NCBI GenBank assembly: GCA_048939765.1
Contig: JBHLPF010000046.1
Location: forward strand, 1-21,459
Direction of reading: 5' to 3'
Length of the DNA stretch: 21,459 nt
Source: Promethearchaeota archaeon
Lineage (GTDB): Archaea > Asgardarchaeota > Thorarchaeia > Thorarchaeales > Thorarchaeaceae
The notes under the pieces are model-generated. The model worked only from the letters and a program-made list of their open reading frames with translations, had not been told where the DNA came from and searched no databases. Position numbers and translations under genes: made by a program. Below are positions 2,625 to 18,071 of this stretch, in pieces (positions within the stretch are counted from its first letter, which is position 1; each line of letters opens with the position of its first letter).

Positions 2625-3392
2625 ATGCCAAGGTACGAGGTAGCAATTGCTACAAGGAACCCAAGAGTTCGCTATCTTGCTGTGAACCTCATGAAGCGGC
2701 TTGGTATTGGTTTCATAATTTGTGCTCCTGATGAAGAAAAATGCGATGCATCACAAGTTGTAATAACGACTGAAACCGAGGCCTCACAATTCCATGCAAA
2801 CCGTCTGGTAGTGATGGACGAGGATTCCAATGACGATGCTACCGCTATTGAAATCATGTTGGCGCTCCTAGATATCAGAAACCCCTCAGTCATAGCCATT
2901 GGCATTGACCCAGGAATGAAATTCGGTTTGGCACTCGTTGCCGATGGCGTAGCCATCTATGCAATCACAGCATCTAGCCCGCGGATAGCCGCCAATTATA
3001 CGTTTCATTGGATATCCGTCATCCGCACACATTTCCGGAGTCCTGTGCTGGTGCGCGTCGGTACCGGATCCAGATTATATTCAGCACTCTACCTACGCGG
3101 AATCAAAGACAGAGCCAACAAAAGATTCCACGTCGAAATGGTTGATGAGCGGCATACAACCAGAAAAGGAGAATCGGACAAATCATCCGCCACACTAATA
3201 GCCTCCCGAAAAGGTCGTCCTGTTTCTGATGAGGATTTCGTGCTTGATACAAAGGCTGGATATGTTCGTTCATTGAAACGTCTTGTCACCAAAGTCACAG
3301 AAGGCAGACTTATTCTTACTTCCGCACAGGCTAAATCCATTTTGCTGAATGAAGTTACTCTGGACGAGATTCTGGACAACAGTCATCAATAG
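2625..3392 (+). CDS. Uncharacterised protein with YqgF/RuvX-like RNase H-fold domain
   Basis: AIGIDPGMKFGLALV, VDERHTT and DKSSATLIA parallel the three YqgF motifs (D.G..IG.A; DERL(S/T)T; D..SA..I). SD-like AGGAG upstream. Confidence 0.65.
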   Translation: MPRYEVAIATRNPRVRYLAVNLMKRLGIGFIICAPDEEKCDASQVVITTETEASQFHANRLVVMDEDSNDDATAIEIMLALLDIRNPSVIAIGIDPGMKFGLALVADGVAIYAITASSPRIAANYTFHWISVIRTHFRSPVLVRVGTGSRLYSALYLRGIKDRANKRFHVEMVDERHTTRKGESDKSSATLIASRKGRPVSDEDFVLDTKAGYVRSLKRLVTKVTEGRLILTSAQAKSILLNEVTLDEILDNSHQ

Positions 3393-5320
3393 TCCGCAGC
3401 AAAGAAGGCGCCTATTTGTTCAGCTATAATGCTGGGGTTGTCGGGTATCACCTGTACCACTTCTGCCAACCAAGATGGCAGGAATCTCTTCAGATAGGGT
3501 GTGGCGAATCTCTGGTCTAGAAAGATAATTGCTCCCTTGTCATCAAGTCTTCTGACGGGTCTCCCTGCAGCCTGAATCGCTCTTGTCATTGCTGGAAGAA
3601 CATAGGCATATTCCCTCCCCTTCTTGTTGAAACGAGCATCATAATACTGTATCAAAGACTCTGTACTCGGTGTTGGTCTTGCATACGGCACCCCCACCAC
3701 AATAACGCTTTCCATCGTTGGGCCAGGAAAGTCGCCGCCCTCAGAGTTCCGTCCACCTTGAACACCCAAGAGGACTGCTCCTCCCTCCTCTCCCTTCTGC
3801 TTGAAGCTCTCAATCATCTTGTCGTTCTCTGTTCCTTTCATTCCGGGTTTCTCTTGAAACAACTTCACTTTCAACCGTTTCTCAAGACCAACATTCAACA
3901 GTGATTTGCCAATAGAATAGCTCGTTGTGAAGATGGCCGTATTGCCTGGCGTTGCATGCGCCACCGCCACACAGTGATTGACCATTCTCTTGAACATGTC
4001 ATCATTTCGAGCTTGATAGGTGGTTTCCACATCTTCAACTATCAAACATAACCTATTGCGTGCTGCAAATGGACTGTGATATGTACTTGTTATGGCACCC
4101 TTGCCGAATCCTAGCATTTCTGAATAGGCGGTCATTGGAGAAATGGTTCCTGATACAGCCACAGAGTTGTGAATGCGATTCAAGATTGGACTGGTCACAG
4201 AAGTCGGGTCCAAGGCGAGTAGTTCAAGAGATACCCTCTTATTCTCTCCTCTTCCCCGGCTTGAGGCTAATATGAACGTGTAATCATCGCGCTCTATGCA
4301 GTTTGCCCATCTCATCATGAAGTCTGCTACCCTGTGAATAAACGAACGTGGGAACTTACCAGCCTTGAGGAGTCCTCTTCGTATATTGATTCCCAAGTCC
4401 CTCATATGCACCAGAACATCTGTTTCAGGGTCCAATCCTGAAATTTGAAAGACTTGATCAAATACTGTCTGTGGGTCAATTCCCTTCTCATCAGTTTCTG
4501 CCATGCCCACAGTCTGGTCCAGAATCCATTTTGCGAGCCCTCGAGAGAACTCCTCTGATGTGGAGTCATTATACGTCGTGGCTTCTCGCATAGCTTGCCT
4601 AATCGTCCCAATTGTGAGAGAGTCACTCGCTGAACTAAGAGCCGTAGATGGTACGTTATGCGCCTCATCTTGGACAAGGACCATCTTCGACAAGGGAGTT
4701 TCAAGCTCGGGCATGAACGTTTCCATAATCCATGGATCAAAGACATAGAGATATGATAGTGCTATCACGTCAACGACTTTTGCCAGCCTTTTGGCAAGTT
4801 CATACGGACAGATAGACCTGCCTCTTCCTATCTCCACCATTTCCGGCGCAGTCAATACTCGTTTTGGCATGTCTTCAAGTAAGGTCGCTGGCGATCCCGC
4901 AATTCTGAGATTCTCATAATAGATGCATCGTCGAGTTACCTTTAGCTGACCACAGACTTCACTTATTGGCGCCACAAAGTCTGCATTCTCAAGGACGAAC
5001 TCGTTTATACACATATGACGTCGACCACGAAAAGAAACCCCGCTAACATCGTTCTTCTCAAGGATGGCATCCAGCTCCTCAACAACACGATCCAATTGTC
5101 TATGAGTTCTGGCGCAATAGAGAATTTTGCCCTTGGTTTCTCTTATCCATGGGAGAACTCCACTGAGCGTTGCGCAAGTCTTTCCAAATCCATTTGGGGC
5201 CTCCGTACATATGTGCGTCCCCTCTCTTACAGCGCTCTCAATACCTGCCATCATCTCTTCTTGACCGGCTCGAGCACTCGGATAAGGAAAGAAGTCGTGG
5301 TATGTATGCTTCTCAGTCAT
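3386..5320 (-). CDS. xpd: XPD/Rad3-family Fe-S DNA helicase
   Basis: Q motif (FPYPSARAGQ), EAPNGFGKT, RTHRQL, four Fe-S cysteines (HMC, EVC, RRC, CPYE), DEAH, SGT, SEGGDF, QAAGRPVR. Start ATG 5320 or GTG 5374. Confidence 0.9.
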   Translation of the reverse strand: MTEKHTYHDFFPYPSARAGQEEMMAGIESAVREGTHICTEAPNGFGKTCATLSGVLPWIRETKGKILYCARTHRQLDRVVEELDAILEKNDVSGVSFRGRRHMCINEFVLENADFVAPISEVCGQLKVTRRCIYYENLRIAGSPATLLEDMPKRVLTAPEMVEIGRGRSICPYELAKRLAKVVDVIALSYLYVFDPWIMETFMPELETPLSKMVLVQDEAHNVPSTALSSASDSLTIGTIRQAMREATTYNDSTSEEFSRGLAKWILDQTVGMAETDEKGIDPQTVFDQVFQISGLDPETDVLVHMRDLGINIRRGLLKAGKFPRSFIHRVADFMMRWANCIERDDYTFILASSRGRGENKRVSLELLALDPTSVTSPILNRIHNSVAVSGTISPMTAYSEMLGFGKGAITSTYHSPFAARNRLCLIVEDVETTYQARNDDMFKRMVNHCVAVAHATPGNTAIFTTSYSIGKSLLNVGLEKRLKVKLFQEKPGMKGTENDKMIESFKQKGEEGGAVLLGVQGGRNSEGGDFPGPTMESVIVVGVPYARPTPSTESLIQYYDARFNKKGREYAYVLPAMTRAIQAAGRPVRRLDDKGAIIFLDQRFATPYLKRFLPSWLAEVVQVIPDNPSIIAEQIGAFFAADY

Positions 5321-5426
5321 AGAGTTCTCACTATTCTGGAAGTTGTACCATTGATAACGCTGTTGCTCTGCCACCAGCCGTTACTGCTTTATTACAGAAC
5401 ACATCTTGAATAGCTGGGTGTCACTG

Positions 5427-5771
5427 ATGGAGTTTGATGACATTAGGCAGTTCGTGTCTGATACCAGTCAAGGCAAGATTATGTTTAGAATAATGGATTT
5501 TGAAAACGGCACACTTGTTCTAATCTCTGATTCTAACAAGTTTCGACTTGGTCTTTCGGCAGTGGCTATACCCCCAGGCCATGGGAGGTCAGAACCAACA
5601 TCAACTGGATTATTCTCAGCTGGATTGGATGCAGCCCTTGTCCGCACCATTGCCGAGAGAGTGTCCGCAATGACCAATCAGTCATGCATGGTTGTTGTGG
5701 CAATGAGCACGTTGAATCAAGTTATTGTGATGGAACTGATGACTATCTTAAAGAACCATCTTCTGACTTGA
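5427..5771 (+). CDS. Proteasome assembly chaperone PAC4 (PSMG4)-like protein
   Basis: FRIMDFENGTLVLIS..RLGLSAVAIP..PTSTGLF..RTIAERVSAMTNQSCMV parallels the remembered PAC4 pattern (F.VM.L.DS..LWV..L..LAVAM..PVSTSL..LAQRLA.KT.KQVFV). ATG 5427 behind GGGTG. Confidence 0.6.
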   Translation: MEFDDIRQFVSDTSQGKIMFRIMDFENGTLVLISDSNKFRLGLSAVAIPPGHGRSEPTSTGLFSAGLDAALVRTIAERVSAMTNQSCMVVVAMSTLNQVIVMELMTILKNHLLT

Positions 5772-5970
5772 TGTGTTCTATGACTTCTCGAACCCATCTC
5801 CCAGCACCTTCAGTGGCATACACATGATCAAGAAAGGAGTCCCAGTCTACATCCATTGCATTGGTCCAGTTGTCAAACTCTTTCTGGAGATTGTCAGATG
5901 CAAGTCGATGATACTGACAAAAGTGGCCTCCGACATCATTGGGCCGACCGCAGATTGGGCACTCACTCAT
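5743..5970 (-). CDS. Small CxxC-x10-CxxH zinc-finger protein coupled to topA
   Basis: MSECPICGRPNDVGGHFCQYH followed by a Trp-rich helical region; ATG 5970 overlaps the last codons of topA. Confidence 0.7.
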   Translation of the reverse strand: MSECPICGRPNDVGGHFCQYHRLASDNLQKEFDNWTNAMDVDWDSFLDHVYATEGAGRWVREVIEHIKSEDGSLR

Positions 5971-8089
5971 CAGCTGCTCCCTCTCTCTTTTCTGCTGCTT
6001 TCTCTCGACGTTTCTCGAGTTCCCTAAGCTCATCCTGCCGTCCAGGGCACTCTGTCCAGTTCACACAGGTCTCCCAGGGACGTCGTCCTGAAATCTTGAT
6101 CATGTGATGTCCGCAGTATGGACATTTCTTGTTCAACGGCAAAATAGACCCCTTCTGCGGCAGTGGGTATGTCTGATCGCATCCTCCATCCTTGTATTGA
6201 GTACATCCTACGAACCTTTTCCCAGTTCGTGGAGATCGAATAATGACAAGCTTGCCCACACCGCATTTGGGGCAAGGCCCTATCTCCTCGCTCTCTTTCC
6301 AATAGCGTTGCAGCCCGTTGACGAGCGTCTTCCCAATGCTCTCTTCCTGTGACTGGAACACCCCAAGTAGCTCCTGTAGGTCCTCTCGTGCATGTGATAA
6401 CACCCTTTCTCGGTCAAGACGGTCCTCTAGAATGCCTTGCATCTCCTCCTCCAATCGCCTTGTGAACTCTGCAGAAAGTATCTTTGGGACATACTGGCTA
6501 AGGGTTTCATGTAAAGCGTATCCAAGTGTGGACAGTTCGAACTTGTCGCCAAGTGTATATCCCCTTGACCTCACCGAATCAACAATCGAAGACCTTGTGG
6601 CTTTTGTCCCCAGGTTTTCTTTCTCAAGTATCTTGAGTAGACTTGATGGGTTAAAGCGTGGAGGTGGTGATGTGAATCGCCCCTCCTCTCTAACAGACTC
6701 AAGGTGTACTGAGTCCCCCTCAGCTATAGTCGGCAAAATCCTCTCGTTGAGTTTGACATATGGCTCATAATAGTCCATCCATCCTCTCCTGAGGATTTTG
6801 AGCCCTCTTGCATAGAGCAGGTGGTCTTTGCACGAGATGTCTGCTCGCATGCTCTCTTTTACTGCATTCTCGCCAAATAGAGCGAAGAACCGGCGGACAA
6901 TGAGGTCGTACACTTTAGTTTCGCTTGGGGTCAATCTCTTTGCTGGTCTGGCTCCTGTCGGATGAATGGCCGGGTGTGCCGGATCGTCTTTCTTCCCTTG
7001 GGCTGGGGTGAGCTTCCCAGCAACGAGGACCTGTTTAGCAAGCCCTGCATATTTCTTGTGTTTGCTCAGATTGTCAAGTATCTCTCTCACATTGATGCTG
7101 GAAGGTATCTTCTGACTACCAGTTCTTGGATACGAAATGAGAGCTTCAAGGTATAGCTTTTGAGCAATTGCTAGCGTTCTACTTGGTTTGAAACCAAAGT
7201 GTCTATAGCTCTCAGACTGTAGCCCAGACAAGTTGAAGGGGACGGGAGGCGTCTGAGTGTTCCTCTTGCTATTGATCCCATCAACAATGCCCGATTCTCC
7301 CTTCAAGTCATCTGCAATTGCAAGCGCTTCTTTCTTCACTGCAATCCGTTTCTTCGAGTATTCAAGTTCCAACTCGTGCCCATTGAGCACCCCCAGTGTC
7401 AGGATAGTCCAATACGGAGTGGGCACGAAACTGTTTATCGATTGATCACGTTCGGCGACAAGTGCAAGAGTCGGACCTTGAACCCTTCCTGTAGAGACTA
7501 TCTTGAACCAGCCTGAGGCCTCTTTTATCGCCAAGGTGAGGGCTCTGGTCAGATTGATTCCATATAGCCAATCCACCTCATGCCTGGCTGCACCAGCCTC
7601 TATCATGGGAAAGTCTAGGGTGTCTGACATGTTATCATAGGCTCTCTCAAGCTCTGCCTTGGTCAAAGTCGAGAATATCATTCTCTTTGCCTTACCAGCA
7701 TCTGTTTTGCATGCATAGGCGAGGGTTAGGTATCCGATGAGGCTTCCCTCAATGTCGAAGTCTGTAGCAATGACATACTGGTCTATGTCCTTAGATAGGT
7801 TCTTGATCAGGCGAATTATCGGCTTGATTCCAGTCGCCTTTTTGTCGACCTCATATCTTGGTACCCACTCTGCTGACAGTCTGGGATATTTCCAGCCTTT
7901 CTCAGTCTGTCGGAGCTCGAACAGGTGACCAAGAGCATATACAACAATCAAGTTGTCGCCAGTCCTGTTGCACTCGAAATAGGAGGCGCCTCGCTGCTTC
8001 ACCTCTTTGGGTGCCCCACTCTCATCCAGTGCTTGAGCTATCCGTTTTGCTGCGGTTGGCTTTTCAGAGATTATCAGAACCCTTGACAG
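5963..8089 (-). CDS. topA: DNA topoisomerase IA (archaeal TopA/Topo III) with two C-terminal zinc ribbons; probable CTG start
   Basis: GHLFEL, IATDFDIEG, STGRVQGPTL, catalytic ISYPRT, AHPAIHPT, LGTKATR, CPKCG and CPYCG ribbons. The frame continues 29 codons upstream of the called GTG 8002 to include the TOPRIM motif VLIISEKPTAAKRIA, bounded by TAG at 8092-8090. Confidence 0.95.
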   Translation of the reverse strand: MSRVLIISEKPTAAKRIAQALDESGAPKEVKQRGASYFECNRTGDNLIVVYALGHLFELRQTEKGWKYPRLSAEWVPRYEVDKKATGIKPIIRLIKNLSKDIDQYVIATDFDIEGSLIGYLTLAYACKTDAGKAKRMIFSTLTKAELERAYDNMSDTLDFPMIEAGAARHEVDWLYGINLTRALTLAIKEASGWFKIVSTGRVQGPTLALVAERDQSINSFVPTPYWTILTLGVLNGHELELEYSKKRIAVKKEALAIADDLKGESGIVDGINSKRNTQTPPVPFNLSGLQSESYRHFGFKPSRTLAIAQKLYLEALISYPRTGSQKIPSSINVREILDNLSKHKKYAGLAKQVLVAGKLTPAQGKKDDPAHPAIHPTGARPAKRLTPSETKVYDLIVRRFFALFGENAVKESMRADISCKDHLLYARGLKILRRGWMDYYEPYVKLNERILPTIAEGDSVHLESVREEGRFTSPPPRFNPSSLLKILEKENLGTKATRSSIVDSVRSRGYTLGDKFELSTLGYALHETLSQYVPKILSAEFTRRLEEEMQGILEDRLDRERVLSHAREDLQELLGVFQSQEESIGKTLVNGLQRYWKESEEIGPCPKCGVGKLVIIRSPRTGKRFVGCTQYKDGGCDQTYPLPQKGSILPLNKKCPYCGHHMIKISGRRPWETCVNWTECPGRQDELRELEKRREKAAEKREGAADE

Positions 8090-8181
8090 CTATCTCGCCT
8101 CACATACGTATGGTACAGAATTCCATCCCACGATAGTCTTAAAAGCAGACCGCCAAACGAAACCGCTCAAGGTGTGCTGAC

Positions 8182-8601
8182 TTGCCCTGGTGGCCAAAAT
8201 TCATCATTAAGCCAAGAGTACGACTCACAAGACCAAGGTTTGGGATGCCCCAAAGGCCTCCGGATATTGTTCTGTTTGGACTTGCTTTCATAGCTATTCT
8301 GTTCATACTAGGTGGCAACATTTACACTCTGATTCGGACGCCACCGGCCATTGCTGGTAACCCCTCCGGCAGCGGCGCACCTATTCTCATTGCACCAGGG
8401 ATTGACGTTCAGCTCGGGATGGAAGGTATCGTGGCCTCAGTCGTGGTTATGATTGGAGTCATTGGTCTTGGTCTCATGTATTATTCCTCAAAGTATGTCT
8501 TTCAGCCTGGCTATGCCACAAGGCTTCTCGTGTTGGGAATGATCCTCGCTGGAGTGGCTTTCCTAGTCTTTAGTTACATGTTCGCACTCAAGATAGGATG
8601 A
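8182..8601 (+). CDS. Oligosaccharyltransferase subunit OSTC/DC2-like (OST3/OST6-related) membrane protein
   Basis: Three TM helices; KPRVRLTRP, FILGGNIYTLIRTPP, QLGMEGIVAS and C-terminal ALKIG parallel human OSTC (PNLKLKKP, FLITGGIIYDVIVEPP, QYIMEGLASS, RMKLPG). TTG start behind AGGTG. Confidence 0.8.
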   Translation: MPWWPKFIIKPRVRLTRPRFGMPQRPPDIVLFGLAFIAILFILGGNIYTLIRTPPAIAGNPSGSGAPILIAPGIDVQLGMEGIVASVVVMIGVIGLGLMYYSSKYVFQPGYATRLLVLGMILAGVAFLVFSYMFALKIG

Positions 8602-8621
8602 CAATATTCCTGTATCATACC

Positions 8622-9344
8622 CTATTTCAAGAAGATGATGTCGAGATTGACACGAGACTCCAGATTTGAGATGAGCTCACGCGCTATCGCCAGTTTCTCT
8701 CTCTTTCTTTCATCTGCTGCGAAATTGGATTTATGTCCTGGTTTGGACCATTTCCCGACTATGGCACCAAAGTCCATTCCTGCCAGAACCACACAAGCTG
8801 GATTATAATGCGAAACAAGATAGCATGCTCTGTCTCCATCTGTAAACCCTCCCCAGAGAAAGACATGTTCCGTAGGCTCAACTTGTGTGCTTCCAAGTAT
8901 GGTGTATAGTCCTGGAACAAACTCCGAAACTTTGTCCGTGTTATCTCCATGCGCATGCACTATTGGTATTGCTCCCCTCCGAATAACCTCTCTCAGGGCA
9001 TCAAGGTCACCGTCTAGATCTGTCACAAGTATATCGCATTTGTAATCGAACTCCAGCAAAGCAGAGGCTGCACCATCAGAAGCCACATAGACCGCGTTGG
9101 TGAGCCCTCTTGACGGGATCGTTGTCCTGAGATGCCGCTCCAATGAAGGTCCTGCACCACATATTACAACATTCTTGTTTTCGATTGTCTTCTCAAGTCT
9201 TCCAAGGATTGGGCCCTGCAGGTGGTCTTTGAGAAGCGAGTCTAAGAGTGATGTGGCATCACGGTCTGCTTGAGGATCAAGTGCTAGCCTGTGGACAATC
9301 CGATTGTAATGGGGTTCCCAGTCCTTCCATTCCATTCGAATCAC
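8622..9344 (-). CDS. mptE: 6-hydroxymethyl-7,8-dihydropterin pyrophosphokinase (DUF115)
   Basis: GAGPSL, ASDGA, VTDLDG, VHAHGDN, GGFTDGDRA, GMDFG, KREKLAIA; start overlaps the folP stop (GTGA). Confidence 0.92.
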   Translation of the reverse strand: MIRMEWKDWEPHYNRIVHRLALDPQADRDATSLLDSLLKDHLQGPILGRLEKTIENKNVVICGAGPSLERHLRTTIPSRGLTNAVYVASDGAASALLEFDYKCDILVTDLDGDLDALREVIRRGAIPIVHAHGDNTDKVSEFVPGLYTILGSTQVEPTEHVFLWGGFTDGDRACYLVSHYNPACVVLAGMDFGAIVGKWSKPGHKSNFAADERKREKLAIARELISNLESRVNLDIIFLK

Positions 9345-10555
9345 CCTAGATTCTTCTCTCGTTTCTCCATCAGGTTTCTGATGGCCTTGCCAACTTTAGG
9401 CAGCCCAAAGTAATCCATTCGAAGTAATTTGCCAGTGAGTCTTTCAAGCTGAAGCGGCGTTCCCATGACTAGGATACCTGTCCGGTCTACCCCAGAGTCA
9501 ATCACATCAGCATGATAGGCTGCATCTCCGCCTAGTGCGAGTATTTCTTGCTTGATAATCAGAGCTGCTGGAGTCTTGATGTTCTTGAGAAGGAGACTAA
9601 GAGTGACAGCTTTCCTAGAGAGGGCTCGTCTGATATCGACTCCAGTACCAATCTGTTCAATGGCTATCTCGGCCGCCCTCTCGTCTATAATCCCCAGAAG
9701 CTCGATATCTCGTTCAGTTTCTCTAGTCCAATTCCTAAGTTTCTCTCCCACAGACGCAGCCTGTTTTGCCTCCATGACGTCATGGGCTCTGATAATACTG
9801 GCACCTCTAGCTACTGCGACCGATGTAGCTCCAATGGTCCCTGTTAACCGGTCTTTCGGATCCGTCTGCCCAAGCAGATCTCCGATGAATGCCTTTCTTG
9901 AAACTCCAACGAGAACGGGATGGCCCCACATAGTAAATCGTTTCAGATGCCGAACCAGTTCGAAATCAGTTTCGAGAGGTTTTCCAAACCCAATCCCTGG
10001 ATCCACGATAATCCGTTCGTTTGCGATGCCTACGCCGTGAGCCAACTTCAGACTTTCACTAAGTGCACGTAGCGACTGCTTAATGGTATTACAAGGTTTC
10101 TCACACAGTGACATCAATACTACTGGAACATCTCTTTTTGCAACGAGTGTTGCCATCTTTGAATCTGCTCGAAGACCTGATATATCATTGACAAGTGATG
10201 CACCAGAATCCAGAGCAAACTCAGCTACTTTGGATGAAGTAGTGTCAATTGATACCGGAACGCTAGCACTATCCACAACTTCTTCAAGGCTATCTCTCAC
10301 TCTTTCCAGTTCCTCTTTTGCAGACACCTTCTGAGTGCCATACACACTCTCAGGAGCAGTGGAGGCTCCACCAACATCAATCATATCTGCGCCATCATTT
10401 TCCATCAATTTGACTGTCTTGGGGATTTCCTCCTTTGAGGTCACAACAGAGCCGGAGTAGAAGGACTCTGAAGAGAGGTTTATGACTCCCATCACACGAG
10501 CTGTAGAATTGATTCCAACTTCAAGACGATCAATTTTGACTGTATAGGGAGTCAC
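9341..10555 (-). CDS. folP: Dihydropteroate synthase with C-terminal accessory domain
   Basis: MGVINLSSESFYSG, IDVGGAST, SIDT, VNDISG, DPGIGFGK, GVSRKAFI, IRAHDV; about 130 additional C-terminal residues. Confidence 0.92.
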   Translation of the reverse strand: MTPYTVKIDRLEVGINSTARVMGVINLSSESFYSGSVVTSKEEIPKTVKLMENDGADMIDVGGASTAPESVYGTQKVSAKEELERVRDSLEEVVDSASVPVSIDTTSSKVAEFALDSGASLVNDISGLRADSKMATLVAKRDVPVVLMSLCEKPCNTIKQSLRALSESLKLAHGVGIANERIIVDPGIGFGKPLETDFELVRHLKRFTMWGHPVLVGVSRKAFIGDLLGQTDPKDRLTGTIGATSVAVARGASIIRAHDVMEAKQAASVGEKLRNWTRETERDIELLGIIDERAAEIAIEQIGTGVDIRRALSRKAVTLSLLLKNIKTPAALIIKQEILALGGDAAYHADVIDSGVDRTGILVMGTPLQLERLTGKLLRMDYFGLPKVGKAIRNLMEKREKNLG

Positions 10556-10673
10556 TATAAATGACCTCAGTCGGGGGTATAGGTGAACACAATAAAGGAT
10601 AACGGAATCTCAAATGTACCATCAAAGTCTTAACATGTTCATAGCCACCTTAGCCCACCCCTGGTGAAATTTG

Positions 10674-16915: not shown

Positions 16916-17113
16916 CTATATCCACTCGAACTGGGTTGCGATATGGGCCATTATTGTGGCAATCAGTAGTAGAGCTGCAAATATCACAACCATTGTGGGA
17001 CCCACCTTGATTCCAGGTGTCTCGTCCTCGAAGAAACGTATAAGTCCGGCTCCGCCTGATGGCATCGGACCTTCTCCACGTTTCTTCCTGCGTTTCTTTT
17101 GGGTCTTAGGCAT
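16916..17113 (-). CDS. secG: Preprotein translocase subunit Sec61beta (archaeal SecG)
   Basis: Basic N-terminus, GAGLIRFFEDETPGIKVGP, single C-terminal TM; AGGAG SD. Confidence 0.9.
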   Translation of the reverse strand: MPKTQKKRRKKRGEGPMPSGGAGLIRFFEDETPGIKVGPTMVVIFAALLLIATIMAHIATQFEWI

Positions 17114-17189: not shown

Positions 17190-17723
17190 CTACCCAATCT
17201 TTCTTATTACAGCCATAGCTGTATCATGCAATACCTTTGAGATGTTCGATATCATTTGCATGGTCTGTTGTTGTTTCTGCATCGCATTTTGCAGATCTAT
17301 GTTTGCCAATTGAGAGTCCTCGCCCATTTCTGACAATTTTCCTTCCCAATCTTTTATTCTTGCATCAAGTTCTTCCGATTGATCAATGTATGACTTTGCT
17401 TTCTCCACAGAAGTGAGGACGGAGTCTTCTCTCTCTACTACCTTGAATTTATTCGATTTCTCATCATATTTCCAGACATCACCGGTCTTCGTATTCAATA
17501 TGAATTCACCAGCAATCTGATATTTGCCAGATTTCTCTTCACTCCTGGAACTCAGATCACCAAGGACTGATTTCCGTGGCTGACTTGAGCTTGATGTACC
17601 AATAGATTTCCTTTCCACAGACGGAGGGGTCTGGGAAACAGGATTCCCGCATTTAGGACATTTCTCCACTCCAGCAGGAATGGATGTTCCGCATTCACGA
17701 CAATACAGACTTCGTCTACTCAT
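17190..17723 (-). CDS. Zinc-ribbon protein with C-terminal T3SS needle/filament-like helical segment (function unknown)
   Basis: N-terminal CRECG..CPKCG, Ser-rich linker, small beta motif (ILNTKTGDVWKY), coiled coil, and C-terminus DLQNAMQKQQQTMQMISNISKVLHDTAMAVIRKIG. Confidence 0.7.
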   Translation of the reverse strand: MSRRSLYCRECGTSIPAGVEKCPKCGNPVSQTPPSVERKSIGTSSSSQPRKSVLGDLSSRSEEKSGKYQIAGEFILNTKTGDVWKYDEKSNKFKVVEREDSVLTSVEKAKSYIDQSEELDARIKDWEGKLSEMGEDSQLANIDLQNAMQKQQQTMQMISNISKVLHDTAMAVIRKIG

Positions 17724-17774: not shown

Positions 17775-18071
17775 CTATCTGTTATCCAGACATTCACAAG
17801 GAGTCTTGCCACATCTTGAACAGGCATTATTGTACTTGTTAAGTAACACTTCCCCCAAGTCAATCTCCAGGAGATTTGCAATTGAGATCACCCATGCAAA
17901 GACATCTGCAATCTCACTCTCGATGTATTCCAATCCTCTATCTTTGGAGATCGCATCACTCAGTTCAGCGAGCTCTTGGAATGTTCTCAGAAGAGTGCGT
18001 TCCAATCCTCGATCTTTGTCCCTCTCAATATAGATCCGACGAATCAGGTCTTGAGCTTCCTTGATATCCAT
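17775..18071 (-). CDS. MazG-like nucleotide pyrophosphohydrolase
   Basis: QELAELSDAI..SEIADVFAWVISIANLLEIDL..KY and C-terminal CSRCGKTPCEC typical of archaeal MazG-like proteins. Confidence 0.85.
   Translation of the reverse strand: MDIKEAQDLIRRIYIERDKDRGLERTLLRTFQELAELSDAISKDRGLEYIESEIADVFAWVISIANLLEIDLGEVLLNKYNNACSRCGKTPCECLDNR

Follow-up and report, generated by a model that had tools for sequence, protein, structure and literature searches.

What does a helix resembling the end of a type III secretion needle subunit do in an archaeon, where it forms the C-terminus of a small zinc-ribbon protein encoded among housekeeping genes? The question is raised by one open reading frame in the window, a stretch of 21,459 nucleotides that constitutes the whole of the DNA analysed, which on the minus strand at 17190 to 17723 encodes from an ATG start 177 amino acids and a stop, and which belongs to one Thorarchaeota genus. 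A preliminary description of the locus proposed a horizontally acquired polymerising module, possibly serving an undescribed archaeal filament or export-related system. The reading that now seems best, at about even odds (roughly 0.5), is that the protein ends in an old, captured needle-like docking or oligomerisation helix that may work without a type III secretion system.

The last 48 residues of the frame read exactly as quoted at the outset, and the layout then given (ribbon, Ser-rich linker, small beta motif, C-terminal helix) agrees with the Pfam match and with the predicted model. The sole Pfam match of the protein is the N-terminal ribbon (17637 to 17705, minus strand; residues 7-29), where Zn_Ribbon_1 (PF13240) passes with 27.4 bits against a cut-off of 25 and the CxxC...CxxC cysteines C8, C11, C22 and C25 are invariant in 19 orthologues; there is a weak likeness to the eL40 ribbon (E 0.04). 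A Ser-rich and variable linker follows (17526 to 17633; residues 31-66), poorly conserved in the alignment and disordered in the AlphaFold2 model with pLDDT below 50, and then a predicted four-strand beta unit (17424 to 17525; residues 67-100, with strands at 68-71, 74-77, 83-87 and 92-97) specific to this Thorarchaeota family, in which F74, N77, T80, G81, D82, W84, Y86, D87 and E88 are invariant among orthologues. Searching with the beta-unit region gave no match outside its own Thorarchaeota family, and candidate matches in another Asgard family (f30) were dismissed as unrelated zinc-ribbon coiled-coil proteins. The rest of the protein is predicted to be a helical hairpin, in which helix 1 (residues 102-135; 17319 to 17420) has its last approximately 20 residues (IKDWEGKLSEMG) within the conserved module and is joined by a three-residue loop to the C-terminal helix 2 (residues 139-177; 17193 to 17309), modelled up to residue 176 of 177 and carrying the very strongly conserved tail QLANIDLQN...SNISKVLHDTAMAVIRKIG. 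The model, made from the 19 orthologues, has a low overall pLDDT (59.8), the layout nevertheless being clear, and a multimer prediction for four copies of residues 100-177 scored 0.01, which counts on neither side as to binding. The 177 residues contain no hydrophobic stretch resembling a signal peptide or a TM segment, as had been said.

That the gene is real is hardly in doubt. Orthologues in other Thorarchaeota MAGs are 62-90% identical with the same architecture, and at 11 of 11 Thorarchaeota loci the gene sits between SHMT-MazG and Sec61beta-L44e-S27e-eIF2alpha, directly upstream of Sec61beta. In the window the Sec61beta gene (16916 to 17113, minus strand; PF03911, E 5.8e-14) begins 76 bp downstream on the same strand, confirming the adjacency first noted, and upstream is a 98-aa MazG-like gene (17775 to 18071, minus strand; PF03819, E 6e-9), the product of which ends in a Cys-rich C-x-x-C...C-x-C stretch. 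Some Thorarchaeota have extra genes between the MazG-like and zinc-ribbon genes, including a paralogous zinc-ribbon ORF. An assembly chimera or a spurious frame, for which the slightly low GC and nothing further could be cited, is refuted by at least eight independent MAGs and 11 loci with the same architecture and position, and its probability is negligible. Of the window's 21 ORFs this one ranks last in both GC (0.419) and GC3 (0.393), against an overall GC of 0.473, so it is indeed AT-richer than its neighbours, but the deficit is modest. Within the phylum, 400 genomes of which were scanned, the full zinc-ribbon/beta/tail protein was not seen outside the archaeon's own genus, where 9 of the 16 other genomes gave a match (eight of them strong) and the remaining seven, at 62-92% completeness, gave none. 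It is an accessory gene of one Thorarchaeota genus.

The tail is spread far more widely. When 1.84 billion representative proteins were scanned in full with HMMER, it turned up in 1468 protein clusters at E<=1e-3, of which 781 were at E<=1e-10, so that the similar tails which the preliminary description placed in uncharacterised bacterial proteins do exist, and by these scores the likeness to bacterial proteins is far above chance. Nearly all of the matches cover only query residues ~113-177. Proteins bearing the tail are 72 to 1113 aa long with unrelated N-terminal parts, among them signal peptides, a peptidoglycan-binding domain and long disordered regions, and all fusions to the module are N-terminal. 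Counted from the protein end, QLAN stands at a distance of 40-41 residues in 220 of the 229 proteins retrieved, and the tail stops 0-1 residue short of the C-terminus in 220 of the 229 relatives. The consensus is ...W-E-x-x-L-x-S-x-G-D-D-A-Q-L-A-N-I/V-D-L-Q-N ... S-N-I-S-K-x-L-H-D-T-A-M-A-V-I-R-K-I-G, and over the last ~45 residues, from the G-D-D loop to the final glycine, nearly every position is at least 85% conserved, polar faces of the helix included, which on the alignment is more than a simple coiled coil would need. The archaeal protein matches the module profile (A1, ~60 residues at the extreme C-terminus) with E 2.1e-35, its residue 177 matching the last G of that consensus. No family model in Pfam or NCBIfam covers the module; with 150 tails NCBIfam returned noise (sll1863_fam, GrpE, SMC) and one TIGR02105 match at E 0.032, and none of the 25 families that most often match tail members is a needle family. 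Literature searches found no paper describing the module, none on DUF5407 and none linking Asgard archaea with needle-like proteins.

Among species-representative genomes the bacterial hosts are Myxococcota, Bdellovibrionales, Acidobacteriota, Actinomycetota, Armatimonadota, Bacteroidota, Gemmatimonadota, Nitrospirota, Dehalococcoidia and Burkholderiales, and the archaeal hosts are Thermoplasmatota, Thorarchaeota and other archaea. Every one of the 80 tail loci returned comes from a metagenome-assembled genome, in some cases on a contig longer than 1 Mb, and no cultured isolate carrying the canonical tail is among them. About one third of bacterial members have a signal-like N-terminus, which is absent in the rest. 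For one bacterial member the prediction (pLDDT 91.5) is a long antiparallel hairpin of an N-terminal helix and the tail with a small insert at the tip, which is an axial-protein topology, although structure searches do not tell it from generic coiled coils.

Several features of individual members deserve recording. The strictly C-terminal rule has exceptions in P0121 (870 aa) and P0123 (449 aa), which have three or four tandem internal and progressively diverged copies of the tail. At locus L032 two giant tail-bearing genes are adjacent (2854-6195 and 6373-10587; P0203; 1113 and 1404 aa), and the 1113-aa protein has, by eye, a motif reminiscent of a calpain-type cysteine protease. In about 25-30% of bacterial tail proteins there is a second conserved helix (residues 12-60 of P0048, for example), D-V-N-A-L-V-Q-x-V-L-R-E-S-Y-L-E-x-x-x-D-L-x-F-Y-A-x-K-V, lying 100-150 residues upstream of the tail and predicted to pair with it. 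Proteins of ~180 aa with both helices share 65-76% mutual identity in the alignment, and loci of this two-helix type are from Acidobacteriota, Actinomycetota and Armatimonadota.

How and when the archaeon came by the tail can in part be read from codons. Over 48 codons the tail of the window has a median of 73% protein identity to bacterial tails of many phyla, the same codon is used in only 32% of the identical residues with synonymous sites saturated, and the GC3 of tails runs from 0.31 to 0.98, following the host. Because the synonymous sites are saturated and GC3 is host-like, the likeness reflects neither recent transfer nor contamination; the tail is, on this codon evidence, old and under strong purifying selection on the peptide. 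Searches of 72,556 plasmids, 50,697 phage records and 2.9 million IMG/VR contigs showed no mobile vector carrying it. The horizontal acquisition first proposed therefore survives only as a plausible foreign origin, to which the fusion in one genus and the occurrence of Asgard tails on unrelated N-termini both point, whereas a recent transfer is contradicted by the codons and by a position fixed across the genus.

Within Thorarchaeota the tail is consensus-like in some species and 17 residues shorter and strongly diverged in others, while the gene keeps its position; diverged tails retain little beyond S-N-x-x-K ... R-N-x-K, and in a tree of the N-terminal 104 residues the consensus-like and decayed tails interleave such that at least two changes are needed. 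Other Asgard lineages have the tail on unrelated N-termini: one family carries a ~150-aa protein with a consensus tail, and in a sister genus the proteins are of 124-136 aa and their ending is closer to that of a needle subunit. In an Asgard genome of another family (G537) a 101-aa open frame (L119, 609-911, plus strand), about the size of a needle subunit, has as its best Pfam match PF09392, positions 4-70 of 71, at E 6.7e-4 and 20.2 bits. Since the tail is on different proteins across the Asgard lineages, the module reached these archaea, or was fused in them, more than once.

Whether the tail is related to needle subunits has a different answer when asked directly and when asked through intermediates. 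Directly, neither PF09392 nor TIGR02105 matched the 177-aa protein even at E<=10, the curated cut-off thus not being reached, and a whole-genome scan with PF09392 gave nothing at the zinc-ribbon gene. Canonical tails at best score 15-17 bits with PF09392 against a cut-off of 29.4, and hhalign of 223 tails with 119 MxiH/PrgI-type needle subunits gave P 1.3e-3 over the last 20 columns, no better than the reversed controls (about 4e-4). Among 150 tail proteins the weak Pfam matches are to KxDL (68), DUF4164 (29) and T3SS_needle_F (23, best E 0.007). KxDL (PF10241) has no match on the 177-aa protein, and its best tail match (E 0.005) is below the cut-off of 27.2 bits; the weak KxDL matches are read as coiled-coil noise, but the weak needle matches are then not unique. 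EspA (PF03433) matched neither the 177-aa protein nor the tail proteins scanned.

The indirect route runs through a set of bridge proteins from five tail-rich Myxococcota/Bdellovibrionales genomes, chosen only for sub-threshold PF09392 matches, so that the link which they provide to SctF, the injectisome needle subunit, is partly built in and has scores all under the Pfam cut-off. Such matches in the five genomes are at 15-27 bits to the C-termini of ~280-900-aa proteins, two of which are canonical tails. PF09392 is the top Pfam match (E 8e-5 to 0.016) of bridge proteins of 327-535 aa, and one bridge protein is weakly matched by EspA (E 0.043). A profile of nine bridge C-termini with no canonical tail among them (A6) has the zinc-ribbon gene as its sole match in the archaeon's genome, at E 3.2e-9 and 38.8 bits over profile positions 10-79 of 80 and residues ~105-176. 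The same nine-sequence profile matches canonical tails at E 1e-7 to 1e-9, and of 301 genomes from the phylum to which G005 belongs, 208 have matches, up to 17 per genome, a count that includes one unpublished genome (G1004) on which nothing else said here depends. In hhalign the tails meet a 33-sequence alignment of the bridge superfamily with P 1.4e-16 over 56 columns (reversed, 0.06 and 0.035), and the superfamily meets MxiH-type SctF with P 6.5e-5 over 44 columns (reversed, 0.44 and 0.23), an alignment that includes the loop and ends at both C-termini. The SctF alignment used covers the MxiH/PrgI subfamily only, a diverse-SctF search of 400 genomes in the class of G010 having given one match. 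Proteins of the bridge superfamily (loci L085-L096 and L120-L149, Myxococcota/Bdellovibrionales) are about 200-1400 aa long.

On these statistics the tail of the window is certainly a member of the bridge superfamily, and the superfamily is probably, not certainly, related to proteins of the SctF/EspA class. The tail is seen from the profiles to be one very strongly conserved branch of a large, undescribed C-terminal-helix superfamily that is greatly expanded in Myxococcota and Bdellovibrionales. Homology of the tail itself to SctF we would regard as fairly likely. The likeness to needle and filament subunits proposed in the preliminary description is thus partly supported, as a remote and indirect homology that appears through the bridge families and fails in direct profile tests, and not as membership. 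Comparisons with known structures add little to this. Profile A1 against PDB sequences gave nothing significant, an SsaG-type needle fragment being aligned end to end at E 0.9; Foldseek against the PDB returned zinc-ribbon fragments only for the 177-aa model and generic hairpins (E>0.1) for the bacterial core model; in a wide VIA-align search dynein stalk, IpaB, flagellin, FliJ and YscO scored Z 9-11, as did many unrelated coiled coils, a range which for long helices is below a meaningful level; and a shape search of the ESM Atlas returned unrelated families.

Does the tail go with a type III machine? The archaeon's assembly, which is 88.5% complete, lacks FHIPEP (SctV/FlhA), so that the original observation of no T3SS genes nearby extends to the whole assembly, and the tail is single-copy in that genome. 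FHIPEP is also absent from seven of nine single-copy tail genomes tested (the seven being Acidobacteriota, Actinomycetes, Dehalococcoidia, Rikenellaceae, Bacteroidales, Thermoplasmatota and an unclassified archaeon), and wherever contigs allow the check no tail or bridge gene adjoins FHIPEP. The tail module is independent of the type III machine. Two bacterial tail loci viewed in full have unrelated neighbours, and clustering the neighbours of 80 tail loci gave no partner common to several phyla. One neighbour cluster is limited to 14 Myxococcota/Bdellovibrionales-type loci (L012, L014-L017, L020, L021, L023, L024, L029, L040, L055, L059 and L077), around tail proteins of ~305 aa, and contains PilY1, a GspH-like minor pilin with N-methylation motif, TPR proteins, an 866-aa protein without a Pfam match and uncharacterised proteins of 261 and 270 aa.

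These genomic facts weigh upon the proposal that the archaeal protein is a subunit of an undescribed filament or export-related system. A needle-like hairpin topology placed strictly at the C-terminus and a distant link to polymerising proteins would both suit a filament. Yet the gene is single-copy in a genome with no export gate, has no conserved partner gene and only housekeeping genes as conserved neighbours, encodes no signal peptide, has no counterpart in the 7 of 16 same-genus genomes already mentioned and has a decayed tail in others. Such a system is therefore very unlikely, and that part of the original proposal is not upheld. A functional link to Sec61beta is not supported either, the adjacency being conserved within one genus only and having no counterpart in the bacterial loci examined.

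The Sec61beta neighbourhood enters again with the suggestion that the tail owes its needle resemblance to convergence, is unrelated to type III proteins, and binds a conserved cellular target such as a translation or translocation component. Within the genus the gene is always beside Sec61beta-L44e-S27e-eIF2alpha, the zinc ribbon is weakly eL40-like, conservation as high as this is what one typically sees in proteins that bind a universal partner, and with the direct SctF tests negative KxDL, DUF4164 and other coiled coils match weakly at least as often as needles do. However the bridge-family statistics withstand reversed controls, the adjacency is conserved at genus depth only, bacterial members are without such a neighbourhood, and since about one third of these seem to be exported and the remainder do not, one cytoplasmic partner for all is unlikely. 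Convergence of this kind seems to us rather unlikely overall.

The same mixture of exported and non-exported members makes a single constant partner in the cell less likely and favours like-with-like association: the module itself is the one partner present in every host and compartment, which suggests a helix that docks onto itself or onto its like. We hold self- or like-with-like association tentatively, at a little short of even odds. In needle subunits of the MxiH/PrgI type N-terminal additions are tolerated and the C-terminus must stay free, which the N-terminal placing of all fusions to the module parallels. By the captured-helix reading a zinc ribbon and small beta unit would have been fused to a captured C-terminal helical-hairpin module; the hairpin would most likely act alone as a docking or oligomerisation helix, packing against its own copies or against the same module on other proteins and requiring its free C-terminus; and the ribbon and beta unit would be displayed at the opposite end as payload. 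Self-assembly alone is no explanation for the conservation, since as judged from the alignments the 70-90% across phyla exceeds that of true needle subunits, and it is this excess that keeps alive both the conserved-partner reading and a further one that turns on predation.

That further reading starts from a needle-subunit-like assembly helix common to predators and their potential prey, in which hosts without a type III system would keep one tail protein as a decoy or plug, an anti-predation mimic that caps, co-assembles with or sequesters the tail proteins of predators and so blocks their delivery or assembly. Tail proteins of Myxococcota and Bdellovibrionota would in the same proposal be missing distal parts, or cargo, of a needleless type III-like predation machine. 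Consistent with it, in what is a non-random sample of genomes, five predator-type MAGs of Myxococcota/Bdellovibrionales, all of which have two FHIPEP genes, carry 13, 7, 5, 3 and 4 tails, and five of the seven FHIPEP-less genomes, those in which copies were counted, carry exactly one each. A need to match the module of the attacker would yield near-identical tails in unrelated hosts, and the patchy accessory distribution, with tails that decay in some Thorarchaeota species while the gene stays in place, would suit a defence. But an arms race normally diversifies an interface and does not freeze it, the archaeal protein lacks an export signal, and neither experiment nor gene context supports the idea, for which we know of no precedent. 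We think it improbable, both as to the mimic and as to the predator parts; if true it would be a previously unknown kind of anti-predation defence.

What matters beyond this one locus is that the tail is a large protein module beyond the reach of Pfam and NCBIfam, found in many bacterial phyla and at least three archaeal lineages with a cross-phylum conservation comparable to that of ribosomal proteins. If the needle/filament link is true, a type III axial-protein helix would have been reused many times outside any secretion system, which would be new for these proteins. The Asgard gene is best taken as a case in which a bacterial module of long standing has been joined to a domain peculiar to its lineage, and not as evidence of eukaryote-like traits.

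Among known systems the module may first be set against the SctF needle subunits of injectisomes (MxiH, PrgI, YscF, SsaG and EscF; PF09392, TIGR02105). Both have a helix-loop-helix hairpin, about 70-90 aa long, whose conserved helix closes the protein at the C-terminus, the pattern S-N-x-x-K-x-x-x-D-x-x-x-x-I-x-N/K ends 1-2 residues before the C-terminus, and a sub-threshold profile link runs via intermediate families. In contrast to SctF the tail has no direct profile match, has a G-D/E-D loop in place of P-x-x-P, has N-terminal fusion partners that reach about 1000 aa, varies far less between phyla, was never beside FHIPEP where checked and occurs in genomes without the type III export gate, its archaeal neighbours being housekeeping genes. 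With the filament and tip proteins of EspA/SseB type (PF03433) the module shares occurrence in larger proteins with a needle-like C-terminal helix, and the single bridge family at E 0.043; it differs in having no EspA match of its own and no LEE-like or SPI-2-like context. The flagellin and hook-associated axial proteins come to mind for bacterial tail proteins with the 'VNALVQxVLRESY' helix, given the predicted pairing of terminal helices and the insert at the tip, but there is no sequence match, structural Z scores of 9-10 are not above those of generic hairpins, and the 177-aa protein is without that N-terminal helix. Small archaeal zinc-ribbon proteins (PF13240; eL40-like ribbon) resemble the four-cysteine N-terminal ribbon and have no counterpart to the rest.

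With the bridge families the relation is clear, their last ~56 residues being homologous to the tail and their helix likewise strictly C-terminal behind variable N-termini, although their consensus is ...K-S-S-T-x-L-M-Q-E-x-Q...S-N-x-x-K-x-x-H-D-M-x-M-T-x-I-R-N-I-R and not QLAN...RKIG, they are much less conserved, and in the genomes covered here they were seen only in FHIPEP-bearing bacteria. For these bacteria the system to compare is that of M. xanthus, which has a type III-like predation machine without secretin, needle or translocon, together with a Tad pilus that depends on the machine for its minor-pilin tips (PMC12075869). The expansion of needle-like helices in Myxococcota bears on the missing needle and translocon (PMC12075869), and it is in this same phylum that some of the needle-like helix genes adjoin those for PilY1 and minor pilins.
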